Assembly: GCA_051047955.1 (NCBI GenBank)
Contig: JBPGPT010000043.1
Coordinates: 62,001 to 109,750, forward strand
Direction of reading: 5' to 3'
Length of the DNA: 47,750 bases
From: Cystobasidiomycetes sp. EMM_F5
Taxonomy: Eukaryota
Positions 1,616 to 45,212 of the stretch are shown in pieces (the first letter of the stretch is position 1; each line of letters opens with the position of its first letter). The notes beneath the pieces were generated by a model. That model saw only the letters and a list, made by a program, of their open reading frames with translations. It did no database searches and was not told the origin of the DNA. Both the position numbers and the translations under genes were made by a program.

Positions 1616-2758
1616 TGTCTAGGGACATTTCCGAGTAGGTTTTATGTATCTTAGCGACACTTTTGCGTATTCGTTTTCTGCAAGCATCGAAATGCATTGT
1701 AATATGTTGAAAAGCTACTTCCACTGCCTGCCATCGTGAACATTGGCGACTCCCAAAAGCCTAACGACGTTCACACTGCTGCACGCTATTTTGCCTGTGC
1801 AAATTGCCGATCTTTGCCGGCCAGCTTGTTTTATGCTTCTCGTCATACTATTTGCTTGTTTTGAGTGAGCGGCTGCTGACATCTTGACGCCGTCCGCTCG
1901 TCTCCACCTCATGTACTACAGTACGTGAACCGCAAAGGGGGCAGTTGCGAATGCCTGAAGCACTTCTCGAGGCCTCTGAAAGCGTTGGCAGCGTATGCAA
2001 AGTCAGATAGAAACCATAACGCTGCTACTGTCTGGCACATCAACTCTGTCCGTGATGCCTGGTTGGCCGCAATGTCCGTAAATTAATCAAAAGCTGCCGG
2101 CTTTTAGTGCCCGCGGCTGGTGCCCCGCTAAAGCGCAAAGCCTCCAAGGGAAACAGATTGCCAGCGAAGATCGAGGAAAATGCAGGTCGCGTGGAGTGCA
2201 GCTGCGACAGCTGGCGATCCGGGAGAGGGCTGCAGCTGTCAGCCTGTCTGATGATAGAGGATGACTAGTTCTGCTATGAAAATCGAGCCAACACGAACCC
2301 TTGTCCTACTGCACCTAAGACTGGCCAGGCGTTGAGCTGCTGCTGAGCCGTTCTGCCAAAAAGTCTGCCTTCGCACTGTCGTCAAGATCGCAGCGGTCCT
2401 GCGCCGTCTTTACTGAAACGGCAGAGCGGACCCCGAGTGAGCCAGAAGAAACACGGAAGCCTTTCCCGCTAGAATCACGAATTACCGTCAGCCTCGGGCT
2501 CCAACGACTACAACGGGTTGCGCAGCGACTTCCCACCGAGACACCCGGCGTACGAGGTTCCTCACTGCTTGACTGGTTTGCGGCTCAAATCGGTACCAAC
2601 GCTGAACGGACAGTACGGGAAAGCTATAAACGGCGCCTAGCCAGCTCGCATCCACTCTCTAAACGATCCTGCATCAAGCCAGCTTCCATCAAGACTACTC
2701 TGCGAGATTTCCATGCCACGCCGGTCGCACGAAATCGGCCCGTCTGTCACGGCACGTG

Positions 2759-5700
2759 ATGGCAAACCCGAGAGATCCGATGACTAATCAACAGTACTAT
2801 ACTCCGGGAGTAAGGGCAAAAGGACTCATGAAGCCTGTCAGATACACTGACTCTGAACGTTCACCTCCATTCTCAAATCCGACCTTGAAAATCTCACATA
2901 CCTCTCCTCTCTCTCGTTACAGCTCCCCCATTATATGCGTCCCGGCTCGCACGGAGAAGCTGCCCAACAACCTCCCAATCCCTTGGCGGCATTCAGTGCC
3001 TCCGCAAAACTGGCGAGCGCATCGTCCAGCAGTCCTGGTACAAGTTCAGGCAATCAAGCAGCCGTCCCTAGGAGGCAAAGAATTCCGCGAGCTTGCGATA
3101 CTTGCAGGTGCGGTGGACCACATTTGTATCCATTGCAGCCAACTGACGTGCTGCACTATGCCTACGTATGACAGGCGGAAGAAGATCAGATGCAATTTGA
3201 CCCAGATGCCTCTCGGAGAAGACGATCCGGAGGATGACGAGGACGAGGATGAGCAGAATGGCCGCCAGTATGAGCGCAGTAGCGTGGCATATAGGCCTCA
3301 AACTGCGAATGGACCTCCGCTGCCTCCGAGAAAGCCTCGAGAGTGCGTCAACTGCCTACAAGCTGGTTTAGTTTGTACATTCACAAAGAGCGCAGCGAAG
3401 AGGGGGCCAAACACAGGATACATCCAGCATCTCGAGACAAGGTTGGCTGCGCTCGAATCATCTGTAAACGGTGAGGATATTAGTAAGCAGACCAAGTTGG
3501 AACAGCGGCGGCCCATGACAGGCGGTTCGATTCTGTCCATCCACGATCCCAAGAAACGATCACGCAGTACCAGTGTCAACGCTGAACCGGCTCCTTCCCT
3601 GGGTGACGCTGGATATGGTGCGCTTCTTGGCGGAACACCGGCAGGCCCCGTCTCGGAGCGAATGATCCCAGATGGTACTGCTGGAAGTATAGCATTACAG
3701 AGCAGGAACATCTCCTCACCGGCCCCCGCACTGAAGGAATCTCAGACACCTCTACACCATCACATCGCTAAGAAACAAAGACTCAGCGGCAAACTCCCGC
3801 CTATACTAACAACAGTCTATCAGCATTCATCCCATGTTTCCGGTCAGATATCAGGTCACTTTCCAGGTGATGTGCCTTCAACCTCGACAGACACACTACA
3901 GCTTGCGACCACAGTGCCTCGTCAGGTGGACACGAGTCCCAGCGGAGTCACAAGCAATCGCACCGCGTCTCCAGAGCGAAAATACCGTCATTACGAAAGG
4001 CCAGTGTCCGGCTCCGGAGTTTCTCAATCGTCAACGGATGTAACTATTCGAGAAAGTCCTGCAACGCACACATATGATTATCACGCCCGACCTTCAGGCC
4101 CCGTCTATGCTTCTCGACCGAGTCCTCGAGACCCTGAACATAGGAAAGCAACCTTGCCTCCTATATCCAAGCTTTTGTCCGAGATACCTCCCGAGCCCCT
4201 ACTACCTCCCCGACAACATGCTCCTCCAGACCATGCCCGCTATAGGCCCCTTTCTGCGCATCCTATTCCTTCGGTCGCAGGGCAACCTTCTGTTTCACCA
4301 CCTGGATATGCAGTCCGGCAACCTGAGCAGCACTTCGCGTACGCCTCAACAGGCTCGGTGGACGGCTCAAGCAGAAGTGAGGGGAATCACGACACTCGCT
4401 CCAGTGCCAACCATCGAATGCATAGCCTTAGTGGGTCGTCAAGCCTTACCGCAGCTGGCCCTTCGGCCAGAACCTCGCCTGAATCTACACATAAGACACG
4501 TGGCTATGCTACATCCGACAGGAGCATCGTCAAGAGACCATCGCGAGAGCTACACCAAACGAACCCATCCATATCTACGAGGGGCAAGCCTCTGGATGAT
4601 CCTCGGCAATCGCACAACCAGGCTTCAATACGATACTCCGGGGAAGGTGGTCGCATGATGGTGGACCGCGATCATGATAGCACGCATTTGCGCCGCGAAT
4701 TGTTTTCGACTCCGGCCATGCGGACATTCGCATTGCTGCCTCTGCAAAGGTTGCACAGCGGATTTTCCGGATGTCGTACACTAATTAGAGCTGGTAAATT
4801 GTTGATATCGCCAGGCAACAGGATCCCCAACGATTCTTGGCTAGCACAGCAATGCGAAATCATCGGCTCTGCTATGCTACCATCAAATACGTCTACCTCA
4901 AACTCTGACGCCGTCCCAGAACAAGTCGAGACGCTTCTGCTGTGTTACGTAGACGCTGTTCGGCGCGGAAAGAACATCTCAGGCGTGCTGGGTGCCATCT
5001 CTGGGAAACTCACCGTATTGCAAAGTCGAGAAGTCGACATAAAACGTTATAATGCTGTATTGACATTACTAGCAATCTGGTATGTCTTCGTGTTGTCGAA
5101 ACCGAAGATGCATCTGGCTGATCATTCGTCAGGCATACCACGAGTCTACTATCCCGGAAAATGTACCCGGCTGCACCGACAATTGCTGATCCTGAACTGC
5201 TCTATGAGGCTCTAGAACAAGAGGATCCCGTAATACGCTGTATCTGTTATACAACCTTTGCGCTGGATCGCATGTGCCGTCGCTACGTCGAGAACAATCA
5301 GCAACAGATCGCTGCAGAAACACTGGAACTAGCATTGCCGCTGGCCATCACTGCTCAACTACCACTTGCTCAGCAGCAACTACAGTTGTTGGCAGTGCTG
5401 GACTCTTTCGTACTGCTGTTAAACTTTCTCTTCAATCGGTATACCGATGCTGCCATGCCCTTCGAGATTCTAGACCATCAGCGTCACAATATTTACAACA
5501 TCATAAACGAATTCAGCATAAGCGGAGTATCCGAATTATTCATCGGACCTCATGTGCTCTGTACTGGTACGGACTCGTCTGAAAGCGTCAACTTACCCTG
5601 ACTAAAGCGCGCTTTTTGACTACAGCTGCTGTTGCGACAATATATTGCATCGCATTTTGTCGCTCTTGGCTTACGGATGATCGTCCAACACATAATAAGA

Positions 5701-19060: not shown

Positions 19061-19423
19061 GTCAGTTGTCAGTAGATAGCCGAATCTACACTCCGCCGAG
19101 GGGCGCACTTTTTGCGGGGCTTGGAGAAAATTGCAGAACAGAACGCATGTTTGATGGAGCGGATACAATAGCCTGCATATATGGCACGAGTGCTGCGCTT
19201 ACCCGATCTTGCAACCGAGAAAAGCCGGTCACAAGACAAGGCATGGGAATACACAGTTTGTTGATTGAGAAATCCAGCTGGATACGTCAAAGCGCTCAAC
19301 CTGAGAGCTGTGCAAATCTGTGTAGAACACTTGCTGATGTCACTCAAATCATAGTTTAACAAGCACCTGTCTGCAATTGAGTCGCTTCAGCACTGCAAGC
19401 CGTCAAAGATTGAGAAGCGCGCT

Positions 19424-20044
19424 ATGGCGGGAGGCAGTGCTCCAGAATTCCATGCTCGCTCGGCAAAGACGATGTACGAGCGGTCTATCGTTTCTGTAGG
19501 ATTGCCGCAAAGCAACGAGCGCAAGGAGCAGATCCGCGTACTGCGTCTGCACGCCCCGCATCCGCTTGGCGTAACAGTGTACGTGCCCGACAAGATGCCA
19601 GTTGAAAGCAAGGAATGGAAGCAATGGATGCTCGACATGAAGCAAGGGACAGTCTTGCGCGTCTCTGCCTGCGGCTATACCGGCACTCGTGCACTCGAGC
19701 GCAAGCGTGCAGCAAAACGCGAATTGACGGGCACCAAAAGCCAACAAAAGAAACCGAAACCACGAAAGTGCGGCAGATGTCATTTGACCACTTGCACCGC
19801 CGGTGGTTTCCGCGGCGCAAAATTCTGTAAGAACAAGCCTTATGATCCGAAACTGTCAAAGTCTAGGCGCGAAAAGGTCGATGAAAGTCAAGCCGAGCGA
19901 GGCGTAACGAAGAAGTCGCGTAAGAAGCGCTATGCAGAGGACGAGGAGGACGAGGAGGACGAGGAGGATAAAAATGAGGAGGACGAGGAGGAGGGCGAGG
20001 ACGGGAACGAGCAAGAGGTTGACGACGAGATGAACCTTGATTGA
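19424..20044 (+). CDS. Intronless hypothetical protein with Cys4 zinc-binding motif, basic region and acidic tail; possible transposon-derived remnant
   Basis: 206 aa ORF with KPRKCGRCHLTTC-x10-CKN, Lys/Arg-rich NLS-like stretches and poly-E/D C-terminus. Confidence 0.5.
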   Translation: MAGGSAPEFHARSAKTMYERSIVSVGLPQSNERKEQIRVLRLHAPHPLGVTVYVPDKMPVESKEWKQWMLDMKQGTVLRVSACGYTGTRALERKRAAKRELTGTKSQQKKPKPRKCGRCHLTTCTAGGFRGAKFCKNKPYDPKLSKSRREKVDESQAERGVTKKSRKKRYAEDEEDEEDEEDKNEEDEEEGEDGNEQEVDDEMNLD

Positions 20045-20308
20045 GCTTTCGTATCGTAAGCTTCACTTTCCCTTCAATGTATGCTAGAAACGCGATTCGT
20101 TGCTGTAGTGCCTAGATGCTGGACTCGATTCCGCTGATTGTCATTCAGTTGTGCTCTTGCTTGTGCCCACATGTTGCAGCAATGTCGAGCGCGCGGAAGA
20201 TGCCCATTGCGGGGATGAGAAGCGGCGGGAATGGCAGGAAAATTCGAAATATCTTGATAGAGATAGAGAGACATGGTTGTGCAAAAGCCAGTGAGGTGGG
20301 ATCACAAC

Positions 20309-20471
20309 GGAAAGTTGGCCGAGTGGTTATGTAAGCGATTCTGCTTCGCTTTTGATGCTTGTAGGTCTGACCGTTGAATTTGTAGGGCGTCGGATTCAAG
20401 CGAAAAGCTTTCATCGGAAGATGGGTATCCCGATCACGCAAGTGGCACGAGTTCGAATCTCGTACTTTTCA
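20309..20471 (+). tRNA. tRNA-Leu(CAA) with a spliceosomal-type intron in the D-arm (20331-20385) and a canonical 37/38 intron (about 20401-20427)
   Basis: Mature sequence GGAAAGT TG GCCGAGTGGTTAT^GGC G TCGGA TT CAA G^T CCCGA TCACGCAAGTGG C ACGAG TTCGAAT CTCGT ACTTTTC A. Acceptor, D and T stems and long variable arm all pair; A31:C39 mismatch in the anticodon stem. Confidence 0.88.
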
Positions 20472-20495
20472 CATATCTTACTTTTCACATATCTT
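20464..20495 (+). repeat. 16-nt tandem duplication at the tRNA-Leu(CAA) 3' end
   Basis: ACTTTTCACATATCTT at 20464-20479 and again at 20480-20495. Confidence 0.9.
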
Positions 20496-21122: not shown

Positions 21123-21128
21123 AAAAAA
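21123..21128 (-). terminator. Pol III T6 terminator downstream of tRNA-Leu(TAA)
   Basis: TTTTTT on the minus strand, 12 nt past the discriminator base. Confidence 0.7.
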
Positions 21129-21140
21129 GATGGTTTAATT

Positions 21141-21282
21141 TGGAATGAGTGGGGTTTGAACCCACGCGTGTCTCCACAACGGTTCTTAAGACCGCCGCCT
21201 TGGACCACTCGGCTGGTAAACGGAGAATATTAGAAAACGACTCGTACATCTGAAAAAGTCGAGGCGCCTCACCCATCATTCC
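21141..21282 (-). tRNA. tRNA-Leu(TAA) with a 60-nt spliceosomal-type intron between positions 10 and 11 (21213-21272)
   Basis: Mature sequence GGAATGA TG G^CCGAGTGGTCCAAGGC G GCGGT CT TAA GA ACCGT TGTGGAGACACG C GTGGG TTCAAAC CCCAC TCATTCC A (82 nt). The perfect 7-bp acceptor stem forms only with the distal 10-nt 5' exon. Confidence 0.92.
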
Positions 21283-42810: not shown

Positions 42811-45212
42811 TCACGCCTCGCCCATTCCCAGTTGTATCTACAGGCGACTGTATCAGCGAGTGCCGCTTCCGCGCAGGTATGCGACGCAGACTGACCAATG
42901 CATACACGTCGGCGATGACGGTCAAGCAAAAGAGACACCACCCAATAGTCATGATGAAGTAGTTATTGGCAAAGCTTGCGGTACCGATCTTTGCTGCCCG
43001 ACTGCCAAACGGATTGATCGCGCGCAACTTATCCATCATGTTTGTGGAGGACCAGGATAACCGCACAGAGTCCATCGCAGTGCGTATGCGATGTCTCAGG
43101 GTCATTCCTGAATCATCAATCTGTTCTCGAACCGAGTCAGACTCGGATGAAAGCAGGACAGACATGCGCTGGTTTGAACTTGTGTAGTATAGTAGCCTTA
43201 AAATTGCATGTGTCAGTCTGCAGCTTTTATCTGCGTACCTAGCGGCAGATACTTACGGGAACATGACAAAGGGCAATACGATACTCAGCGTCACCTGTGA
43301 CGCCACGAGAAGGGTGTTTACGCCAGACTGCCCGACAGATGCCGAGACAACCAGGGAAGGAATCATACCGATCAAGCGGGTGATTATGCGACGCTTCCAC
43401 GGTGTTGTACGCCATTCGATAAACCCTTCGCTGACGACTTGCCCTGCCAACGTGGCAGTGATGGATGCGGCTTGCCCGCTCATCATGAGGGCCAGGGCGA
43501 AGAGGTATGCAAACGCTAAGGTAGGCTCAACAGTCAGATGACAGTACCAGCCCGGAACAGCAGATTATGCCTACTTTGACCGATACTACTCTTGATGAGG
43601 GCGAAAGCGCTGAACAGGTTGCCATCTTGCACCTCCGATGTGTCAGCGTCCCCGCTTCCGTAGTAGAAAGCAGCGCCGGCGACAATGAGAATAGCAGAAT
43701 TGACGACGAGAGCAAAGCTAAACAAGCTGACCATAATATCGATTTGAGCGTGATGAACGTGTAACTTGATGGAGCGGAGAGACCGCTTCTTTGACTCGTC
43801 GCGAGGCTGTATCGGCATGATTGGCAGAGGCGTAGGCTGTGGCATATGTAACGAAGGGCCCATCATGTAGGAAGTACTGCGTGACCGGCTTCTGGGCGAT
43901 GACACCGAAGCCAATGCAATGTCACCAGACTGAGGCTTTGGCTCGTCTTTCGCTACTTCTGCATCATCAACGTTCGGCTCGCTGGCATCGACCTCGTCAC
44001 ATGTATCCATTCTCTCGATGGTGCCCAATTTTGAACCCAGAAAGAGCGCGTGAGGCATGACGGTTGCGCCGATTATGCCAACGGAGATGTATAACGCTCC
44101 GTTGGCTACAATGTCATTAGACGGCAGGTAACCTTCGAATACGTCCGACCAGTCTGGCGCCAGTCGGACGAGGAGAACGATGAAAGCCGCCAGGACTGTA
44201 AGTACAAGAACTGCAATGAGAATTTCGAAAGCGGTTATACTACGATTGCGTCGTTCGGACGGATAAGAATTGAATGCCAGTAAGACAATGAAGACGTCCA
44301 GAGATGTGAGCAAAACTCCGCCCCACAGCGGTATTTGCGGAATGAGACTGGTAAGATGCGAGATTAGGTGTGGGTCATCTGGGTAGGTATATGACCTCTC
44401 CACGCACAGGTTGAAAGCTGTTGCAGTACCGAGCAGCTCGGCTAGGTCGGTAAATATGATTGCGGCTGTCACTAGGCTCAGCTTGTGAACTATCGCATGG
44501 CGACCCGCTCTCACATTCTGCGATGATGTACAAGGGGTAAAGAACGGCCCATCGCCAGAACAATGTATGCCGCTTCCGCGAGTGAAGTGATTGCCGACAT
44601 AGTGAAGCGATGTCTACCATCAGCAGGATCCCATCAGACATCTGTAGTCTTGGCGCGTCTTGAGAAACCGGACAGTACCTTTTCCAGTCACAATACCTAA
44701 TCTTGCAGCGAGGACTTGCATAAGTATTCCGACGAGGCCAGCGAAGAGAACGATAAACAGCAGCTTGTAGCCAAATCCTGCTCCGGCGGCCAGATCCGTC
44801 GCGTAGTTGCCTGGGTCATTCGTTCAGTCTAGCTCTCCGGCCGTTCACAAGCTAATTGGCGCTCACCTGGATCAATGTATGCGCTACTGGCGATTAAGCC
44901 AGGACCAAGGAAGCGCAAGTGTCGTCGGCACCAGGCGATAGTTTTGGCAGTTCCTCCTCGCCACCTGTCGGGTCTGCGACTTCCAGGCGGACTTGGAGTG
45001 TTGATTATTTCTGAACTGTGCGGTGTATCCTCGTCTCCATGTCGCAGTATCCCGTCATTGTGGACGGGCAGCTCCCGTTCTTCATTGTCATGGTCGTCGA
45101 GCCCTGGCGTTTCTGATTCTTTCCTCGCATCTTGGCAAGACAGGGATGTCTGAATGGCCTGCCCTCTGGCCAGCCAGTCTGCGCGGTGCGAAAGCTGCCG
45201 TGGTCCTTGCAT
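42811..45212 (-). CDS. NRAMP-family divalent metal transporter (Smf1/Smf2-like)
   Basis: [22 protein letters not shown] (DPGN), [46 protein letters not shown]. End inferred from a last intron giving IQLGMGEA*. Confidence 0.93.

Follow-up and report, generated by a model that had tools for sequence, protein, structure and literature searches.

Spliceosomal-type inserts in the D arms of two leucine tRNA genes of a basidiomycete, one of them beside a canonical tRNA intron

Introns of the mRNA type are found in several genes whose products are structured, non-coding RNAs. [quoted passage not shown] As stated in 2017, among small structured RNAs frequent interruption by an intron was known for U3 and U6 alone (PMC5832005). 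Eukaryotic nuclear tRNA genes have their introns only between nucleotides 37 and 38; these are taken out by a protein endonuclease together with a ligase, the spliceosome playing no part, and the process has been set in contrast to spliceosomal splicing (PMC10275265). The full-text literature searched, outside of which most subscription journals lie, yielded no description of a spliceosomal intron in a nuclear tRNA gene. Here, we describe two neighboring genes, for tRNA-Leu(CAA) and tRNA-Leu(UAA), whose D arms are each split by a short GT..AG insert that resembles the mRNA introns of the same region. Both lie in a stretch of 47,750 nt, the whole of which was analysed and is referred to below as the window.

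Judging from the proteins encoded in the window, the organism is a basidiomycete. An exon of a Neo1-type flippase displays 72-76% identity to proteins from Agaricomycetes, Microbotryomycetes and Mixia alike, and an exon of an Nramp transporter matches proteins of Microbotryomycetes and Ustilaginomycotina at 34-45%; the collections searched contain no closely related sequenced species. This affiliation is relevant because it is in basidiomycetes that genes for U1, U2, U5, U6 and U3 with spliceosomal introns have been described (PMC5855946; PMC5832005). An 850-aa open reading frame (ORF) at 2663-5215 on the plus strand has only two non-self relatives at E <= 1e-20 among 5.8 billion proteins, one of which carries a fungal Zn2Cys6 domain, and from this scarcity of relatives the organism appears to be poorly sampled.

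The tRNA-Leu(CAA) gene occupies positions 20309..20471 of the plus strand and consists of three exons separated by two inserts. Exon 1 (20309..20330, 22 nt) provides the 7-nt 5' strand of the acceptor stem, U8, G9, the 5' strand of the D stem and the D loop up to position 22, and includes the invariant GG of this loop and an intact A-box-like sequence, TGGCCGAGTGG. The spliceosomal-type insert that follows (20331..20385, 55 nt) lies between positions 22 and 23 of the tRNA; it opens with the 5' site GTAAGC, has at 20366-20371 the branch motif TCTGAC, whose branch A stands 15 nt before the end of the insert, and closes with the acceptor TAG. It consists of 44% GC and 40% T, has one T4 run, and its register has a 1-nt ambiguity, GT..AG being one of two possible registers. 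Directly 3' of it, GGCG at 20386-20389 closes the D stem with GGC and supplies G26, and exon 2 (20386..20400) continues through the 5' strand of the anticodon stem and the loop with the CAA anticodon to G37, at 20400. The second insert (20401..20427, 27 nt) lies between positions 37 and 38 and is, as far as its position and pairing can tell, a textbook tRNA intron: the G at -3 stands opposite T32, and TGGG, at intron positions -6 to -3, forms four of four pairs with loop positions 32-35. Exon 3 (20428..20471) comprises T38, the 3' strand of the anticodon stem (CCCGA), the long variable arm, the T arm, the 3' strand of the acceptor stem and A73; it brings with it an A31.C39 mismatch in the anticodon stem, a G2.U71 wobble pair and a T4 run within the acceptor strand. 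A preliminary description of this gene had given the coordinates and motifs of the 55-nt insert, the canonical place of the second insert with both of its pairings, and the A31.C39 mismatch, all of which are present in the sequence. At the 3' end of the gene there is an exact 16-nt tandem duplication (20464-20495, plus strand), in which 20464-20479 is repeated at 20480-20495. Its unit is made up of the last 8 nt of the tRNA and 8 nt of trailer, and it could be the result of replication slippage or the footprint of an insertion.

In its intact form this gene escapes detection: ARAGORN makes no call on it, either in intron mode or in default mode, in which the window as a whole yields no tRNA, and Rfam gives no match to it at the gathering threshold. 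When the 55-nt insert is cut out by script, ARAGORN in intron mode reports a tRNA with an anticodon-loop intron, placed at the 27-nt insert, and when both inserts are cut out it reports tRNA-Leu(CAA) with a type-II cloverleaf. When the window is searched with a pattern for Leu(CAA) whose D arm is interrupted, there is a single match, which exceeds chance, the expectation from 100 shuffles being zero.

The second split gene, tRNA-Leu(UAA), lies 800 nt from the first, on the minus strand (21282..21141). Its exon 1 (21273..21282) has only 10 nt, namely the 5' strand of the acceptor stem, which is fully complementary to the 3' strand, followed by U8, G9 and G10. The spliceosomal-type insert (21213..21272, 60 nt) is located between positions 10 and 11, and carries the 5' site GTGAGG, the branch motif TCTAAT, whose branch A stands 17 nt before the end, and the acceptor CAG; it consists of 45% GC and 37% T, with one T5 and one T4 run. 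Exon 2 (21141..21212) contains what remains of the D arm, the anticodon arm with TAA, the long variable arm, the T arm, the 3' strand of the acceptor stem and A73. The sole Rfam tRNA match in the window falls on this gene (21214..21149, minus strand, 35.5 bits); it covers model positions 9-63 only, and its alignment places at positions 9-10 an AG that is the end of the 60-nt insert. Once the insert is removed, ARAGORN finds an 82-nt tRNA-Leu(UAA) with no stem mismatch and a perfect 7-bp acceptor stem, and its intron mode, applied independently, arrives at the same outer ends (21141-21282) with a mis-modelled interior. In both restored cloverleaves U8, A14, G18-G19, U33, the T loop and A73 are in place.

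A scan for T arms, defined as a 5-bp stem around a TTCRANN loop, detects only those of these two genes in the 47,750 nt, so that a D arm with a GT..AG insert is present in two of the two tRNA genes of the window; the point of insertion is 22/23 in one and 10/11 in the other. The reading of the Leu-CAA insert as spliceosomal is much the stronger because a second, independent gene contains an insert of the same kind at a different position. Relatives were also sought outside the window. In a metagenome scan for Leu(CAA) D arms with an interruption of 43-73 nt, which used an unbiased pattern, 10 loci matched, none of which has a tRNA on reading or by ARAGORN; these loci were rejected as related tRNAs, being chance matches inside coding-like DNA. 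An exact search with a 33-nt piece of Leu-UAA gave no match in prokaryote and virus contig collections, and one with a 28-nt piece of Leu-CAA none in virus contigs, results that say little where a fungus is concerned.

The mRNA introns of the window itself provide a local standard for the two inserts. Eight of them, from the Nramp, TAF7 and Rab5-like genes, served as the reference set: five from Nramp, placed by tblastn with a homologue of 59% identity, one from TAF7, placed by the continuity of the Pfam profile over two ORFs, and two from the Rab5-like gene. These introns measure 56-66 nt, their acceptors are YAG or AAG, their branch motifs are CTGAC, CTGAT or CTAAT, and their 5' sites are GTGAGC, GTACTG, GTGCGT, GTAAGT, GTAGGC, GTGGGC and, twice, GTGAGT. 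Both D-arm inserts fit this set in 5' site, branch motif and acceptor; the 60-nt insert lies inside the size range and the 55-nt insert 1 nt below it. The Nramp metal-transporter gene (42881-45212, minus strand), whose closest protein, at 59% identity, is metagenomic, has five short introns of 56-65 nt, one of which has an AAG acceptor and another the 5' site GTACTG.

The agreement of the two inserts with this standard is rare among segments of their length. A strict signal test asked for a GTRNG start, a CTRAY motif with its A 10-30 nt from the end, and a YAG end; it is passed by both inserts and by five of the eight reference introns, and in the window by 4 of 95,390 segments of 55 nt and 3 of 95,380 segments of 60 nt, counts that include the inserts themselves. 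Each insert has two registers that give the same mature sequence, and the chance figure was accordingly doubled; it stays below 1 in 10,000 for each. A looser intron pattern was rejected as a statistic, its 29 and 24 matches in the window comparing with 18-34 in shuffles. Both inserts have R at +3 and G at +5, in line with the extended consensus for the 5' site, and downstream of its branch motif each contains a single AG, at its very end, which is the one whose use restores the tRNA. The inserts are also T-rich and poorer in GC (44-45%) than the window as a whole (52%). Read by these signals, the D-arm insert of Leu-CAA is equipped with everything that marks a local spliceosomal intron, and it is very likely that the two tRNA genes carry genuine spliceosomal-type intron sequences.

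The two inserts are unrelated to each other, with a global alignment score of 1.0 against -2.2 +/- 3.2 for shuffles, and no further copy of either is present elsewhere in the window. The idea that they are copies of one shared mobile element was rejected, as their alignment falls within the shuffle range and the window holds no other copies. Unrelated in sequence and inserted at separate points (22/23 and 10/11), they suggest that two events took place independently.

A gene transcribed by Pol III has internal A and B boxes and a T run downstream. In Leu-CAA the A-box-like sequence lies 135 nt before the B box. The preliminary description had remarked on the lack of a nearby terminator, and indeed no run of T5 or longer occurs within 230 nt downstream of the gene; T4 runs are distributed over the D-arm insert (one), the acceptor strand of the tRNA (one) and the downstream flank (two). 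The insert of Leu-UAA breaks up the A box, and its last three bases recreate, together with exon 2, the A-box-like sequence CAGCCGAGTGG. The T5 and T4 runs inside this insert could stop Pol III, and the A-box-like sequence at the intron-exon junction could start transcription within the insert; a T6 run with the look of a Pol III terminator (21123..21128, minus strand) follows 13 nt beyond the 3' end of the gene. Against a reading of the two genes as sources of working tRNAs we have counted the A31.C39 mismatch, the G2.U71 pair, the T4 run in the acceptor strand and the lack of a T5 or longer run within 230 nt in Leu-CAA, and the split A box, the T runs of the insert and the potential start site inside it in Leu-UAA. 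Because the Pol III signals are mixed in this manner, there is room for explanations in which the genes are inactive copies or are transcribed by Pol II.

A further point on that side is the folding of the precursors, which is no better than that of shuffled sequence (z = -1.42 for Leu-CAA and -1.41 for Leu-UAA). When the Leu-CAA precursor is folded at minimum energy, the part of the D-arm insert around the branch site (20364-20372) pairs with the 5' strand of the anticodon stem (20387-20396). Upstream of Leu-CAA, and on the same strand, lies a 229-aa ORF (19355-20044), from which the tRNA is separated by 265 nt; its acidic tail is encoded by a 9-nt periodic repeat of the GAGGAC type (19923-20033, plus strand). 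Just past the stop codon of this ORF there is a 93-nt GT..AG stretch with a CTGAT motif (20056-20148, plus strand; 70 nt if it is taken from 20079). If this stretch were a 3'-UTR intron, a Pol II transcript would run toward Leu-CAA; the pattern that picks it is not enriched in relation to shuffles.

Departures from the canonical tRNA intron position have been described elsewhere, and they suggest a means of removing the D-arm inserts that does not involve the spliceosome. Nuclear tRNA genes of Cyanidioschyzon merolae contain ectopic and multiple introns (PMC3728597), and the nucleomorph of Guillardia has ectopic introns without a defined bulge-helix-bulge (PMC3978253). By analogy with these systems and with archaea, the tRNA splicing endonuclease, or another non-spliceosomal activity, might excise the inserts, a proposal to which we attach very little probability. 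The bulge-helix-bulge is composed of two 3-nt bulges that contain the cut sites, a 4-bp central helix and flanking helices, and the cut takes place after the second base of the bulge. When all registers that keep the mature sequence were scored by this geometry, the D-arm insert of Leu-CAA reached one and two of the four pairs of the central helix, with flanking helices missing or incomplete, and that of Leu-UAA one and three of four, with no outer helix; the canonical intron of Leu-CAA scored four of four. A bulge-helix-bulge reading was rejected for both inserts on their central and flanking helices, there being no valid register in either with a 4-bp central helix and flanking helices, and removal by endonuclease would leave the full set of spliceosomal signals unexplained. 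The inserts are also too short for self-splicing introns, which were rejected for this reason. The genes might also be tRNA-like modules within Pol II transcripts, in the 3' UTR of the upstream gene or in a non-coding RNA, whose introns are spliced as usual. RNase P and RNase Z would then cut out the tRNA part, either as a working tRNA or as a mere signal for 3'-end processing. For Pol II the T4 and T5 runs of the inserts and the missing T5 or longer terminator after Leu-CAA would be no obstacle, and the position of Leu-CAA, shortly downstream of an ORF of the same strand with an intron-like stretch after its stop codon, lends itself to this arrangement. We nevertheless hold it to be improbable, since Leu-UAA is followed by a classic T6 run, the loose pattern that picks 20056-20148 is no commoner than in shuffles (see the figures above), and two convergent genes cannot both be in sense on one transcript.

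The genes may also be dead or dying copies that an intron has entered, by reverse splicing and retro-recombination or as an introner-like element, with intact paralogues elsewhere supplying Leu-CAA and Leu-UAA. Such an origin, which we consider unlikely but deserving of some weight, would account for the imperfect Pol III signals, in that no T5 or longer run follows Leu-CAA while Leu-UAA has a T5 run in its insert and a split A box, and for the A31.C39 mismatch; furthermore, an inserted intron brings its own splice signals, so that good signals alone are no proof of their use. The state of the tRNA sequences speaks against decay. Save for that one mismatch both cloverleaves are intact, all the conserved nucleotides listed above have been kept, and the 10-nt exon 1 of Leu-UAA still pairs perfectly although it stands 60 nt away from the remainder of its gene. 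Neither insert belongs to a repeat of the window. In addition, if two of the two tRNA genes of the window were pseudogenes of one and the same rare type, introns would have to enter tRNA genes often.

Removal of both inserts by the spliceosome, giving rise to working tRNAs, is in our judgment the best single explanation of these genes, with a probability of roughly 0.55. The preliminary description had proposed a spliceosomal-type intron for the D arm of Leu-CAA, and with the signals of the insert, its lack of a bulge-helix-bulge and the second gene, this proposal holds at the level of sequence. In the mechanism that we envisage, each of the two nuclear genes would have gained, in an event of its own and at its own place in the D arm, an intron of the U2-type GT-AG class. 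We infer that the genes are transcribed, presumably by Pol III, and that the inserts are spliced: the spliceosome would recognize the primary transcript by the usual signals (5' splice site, branch site and acceptor), and the insert of 55 or 60 nt would leave as a lariat, thus restoring the D arm. In the case of Leu-CAA, the anticodon-loop intron would be removed by the tRNA splicing endonuclease and a ligase, and this single tRNA would consequently depend on both machineries.

An order of action for the two machineries had also been put forward in the preliminary description, where the spliceosome had to act first, given that the endonuclease requires a folded tRNA and the D arm cannot form while it is interrupted. 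The eukaryotic tRNA endonuclease does recognize the mature domain (PMC10275265). The insert of Leu-CAA, however, lies between positions 22 and 23, and the D-stem pairs stay on uninterrupted strands: the Watson-Crick pairs 10:25, 11:24 and 12:23 can form while the insert is looped out as an enlarged D loop. Because these three pairs can still form, the order of the two steps is not forced, and a spliceosome-first order is plausible rather than compelled.

A wider claim is that a basidiomycete lineage routinely has spliceosomal introns in its nuclear tRNA genes, that the spliceosome is an obligatory enzyme of tRNA maturation there, and that Leu-CAA requires the spliceosome as well as the endonuclease-ligase system, as no RNA was known to do before; we advance it tentatively, and rate its chances as somewhat below even. 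If the proposed splicing does take place, a tRNA that depends on the spliceosome for its repair would join two RNA-processing systems that have been thought of as separate. The list of structured RNAs that have been invaded by mRNA-type introns (U6, U3, U1, U2, U5 and rRNA) would grow to include the most abundant product of Pol III, and nature would have provided a test of whether the spliceosome is able to act on uncapped Pol III transcripts whose first exons have 10-22 nt. As a tRNA is not part of the spliceosome, the origin of such introns would then be set by the abundance of the host RNA, and not by its proximity to the catalytic center.

There is also a consequence for the annotation of genomes. 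With ARAGORN in default mode and Rfam at its gathering threshold, Leu-CAA is missed wholly, and Leu-UAA is truncated by Rfam; since these finders miss or truncate split genes, genomes that contain such genes would seem to be without the isoacceptors in question. If the reading given here is true, the phenomenon could, for the same reason, be widespread and uncounted.

In comparison with the systems in which structured RNA genes are interrupted, the new element is that the mRNA-type introns of such genes would now extend to tRNAs, in one case beside a canonical tRNA intron. The precedent that comes nearest is U6 of Schizosaccharomyces pombe, whose gene is transcribed by Pol III. As in the U6 genes of this and other fungi, a short GT-AG intron with canonical signals is contained within a Pol III-class gene for a small, strongly structured RNA, and the fungal U6 introns, which are otherwise unconserved, likewise resemble independent insertions (PMC5855946). 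The tRNA genes differ from U6 in that their product is not part of the spliceosome, so that proximity to its catalytic center cannot explain the insertion, and in that Leu-CAA has an endonuclease-type intron as well; furthermore, splicing of the S. pombe U6 intron is established, whereas that of the tRNA inserts is proposed. A similar likeness exists with the normal spliceosomal introns in the non-coding RNA genes for U3 of fungi, for U1, U2 and U5 of Rhodotorula hasegawae and for rRNA of ascomycetes, such introns being common in Basidiomycota (PMC5832005; PMC5855946). The distance from branch site to acceptor, with a median of 15 nt in U3 (PMC5832005), is 15 and 17 nt in the two tRNA inserts.

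Comparison with known tRNA introns separates the two kinds of insert. In its position, its anticodon-intron pairing and its purine at -3 opposite nucleotide 32, the 27-nt insert at 20401-20427 conforms to the canonical eukaryotic tRNA intron (PMC10275265), while the D-arm inserts differ from it in lying between positions 22 and 23 and between 10 and 11, instead of 37 and 38. The paper on tRNAscan-SE 2.0 gives one intron as the maximum for a eukaryotic tRNA gene (PMC8450103); Leu-CAA has two. In C. merolae and in archaea, tRNA genes are also split outside the anticodon loop, the D arm included, and sometimes repeatedly (PMC3728597; PMC3978253). Those ectopic introns, as described in the same sources, are defined by the bulge-helix-bulge and cut by the tRNA endonuclease, whereas the D-arm inserts of Leu-CAA and Leu-UAA are without this motif and carry, in its place, the signals of spliceosomal introns.
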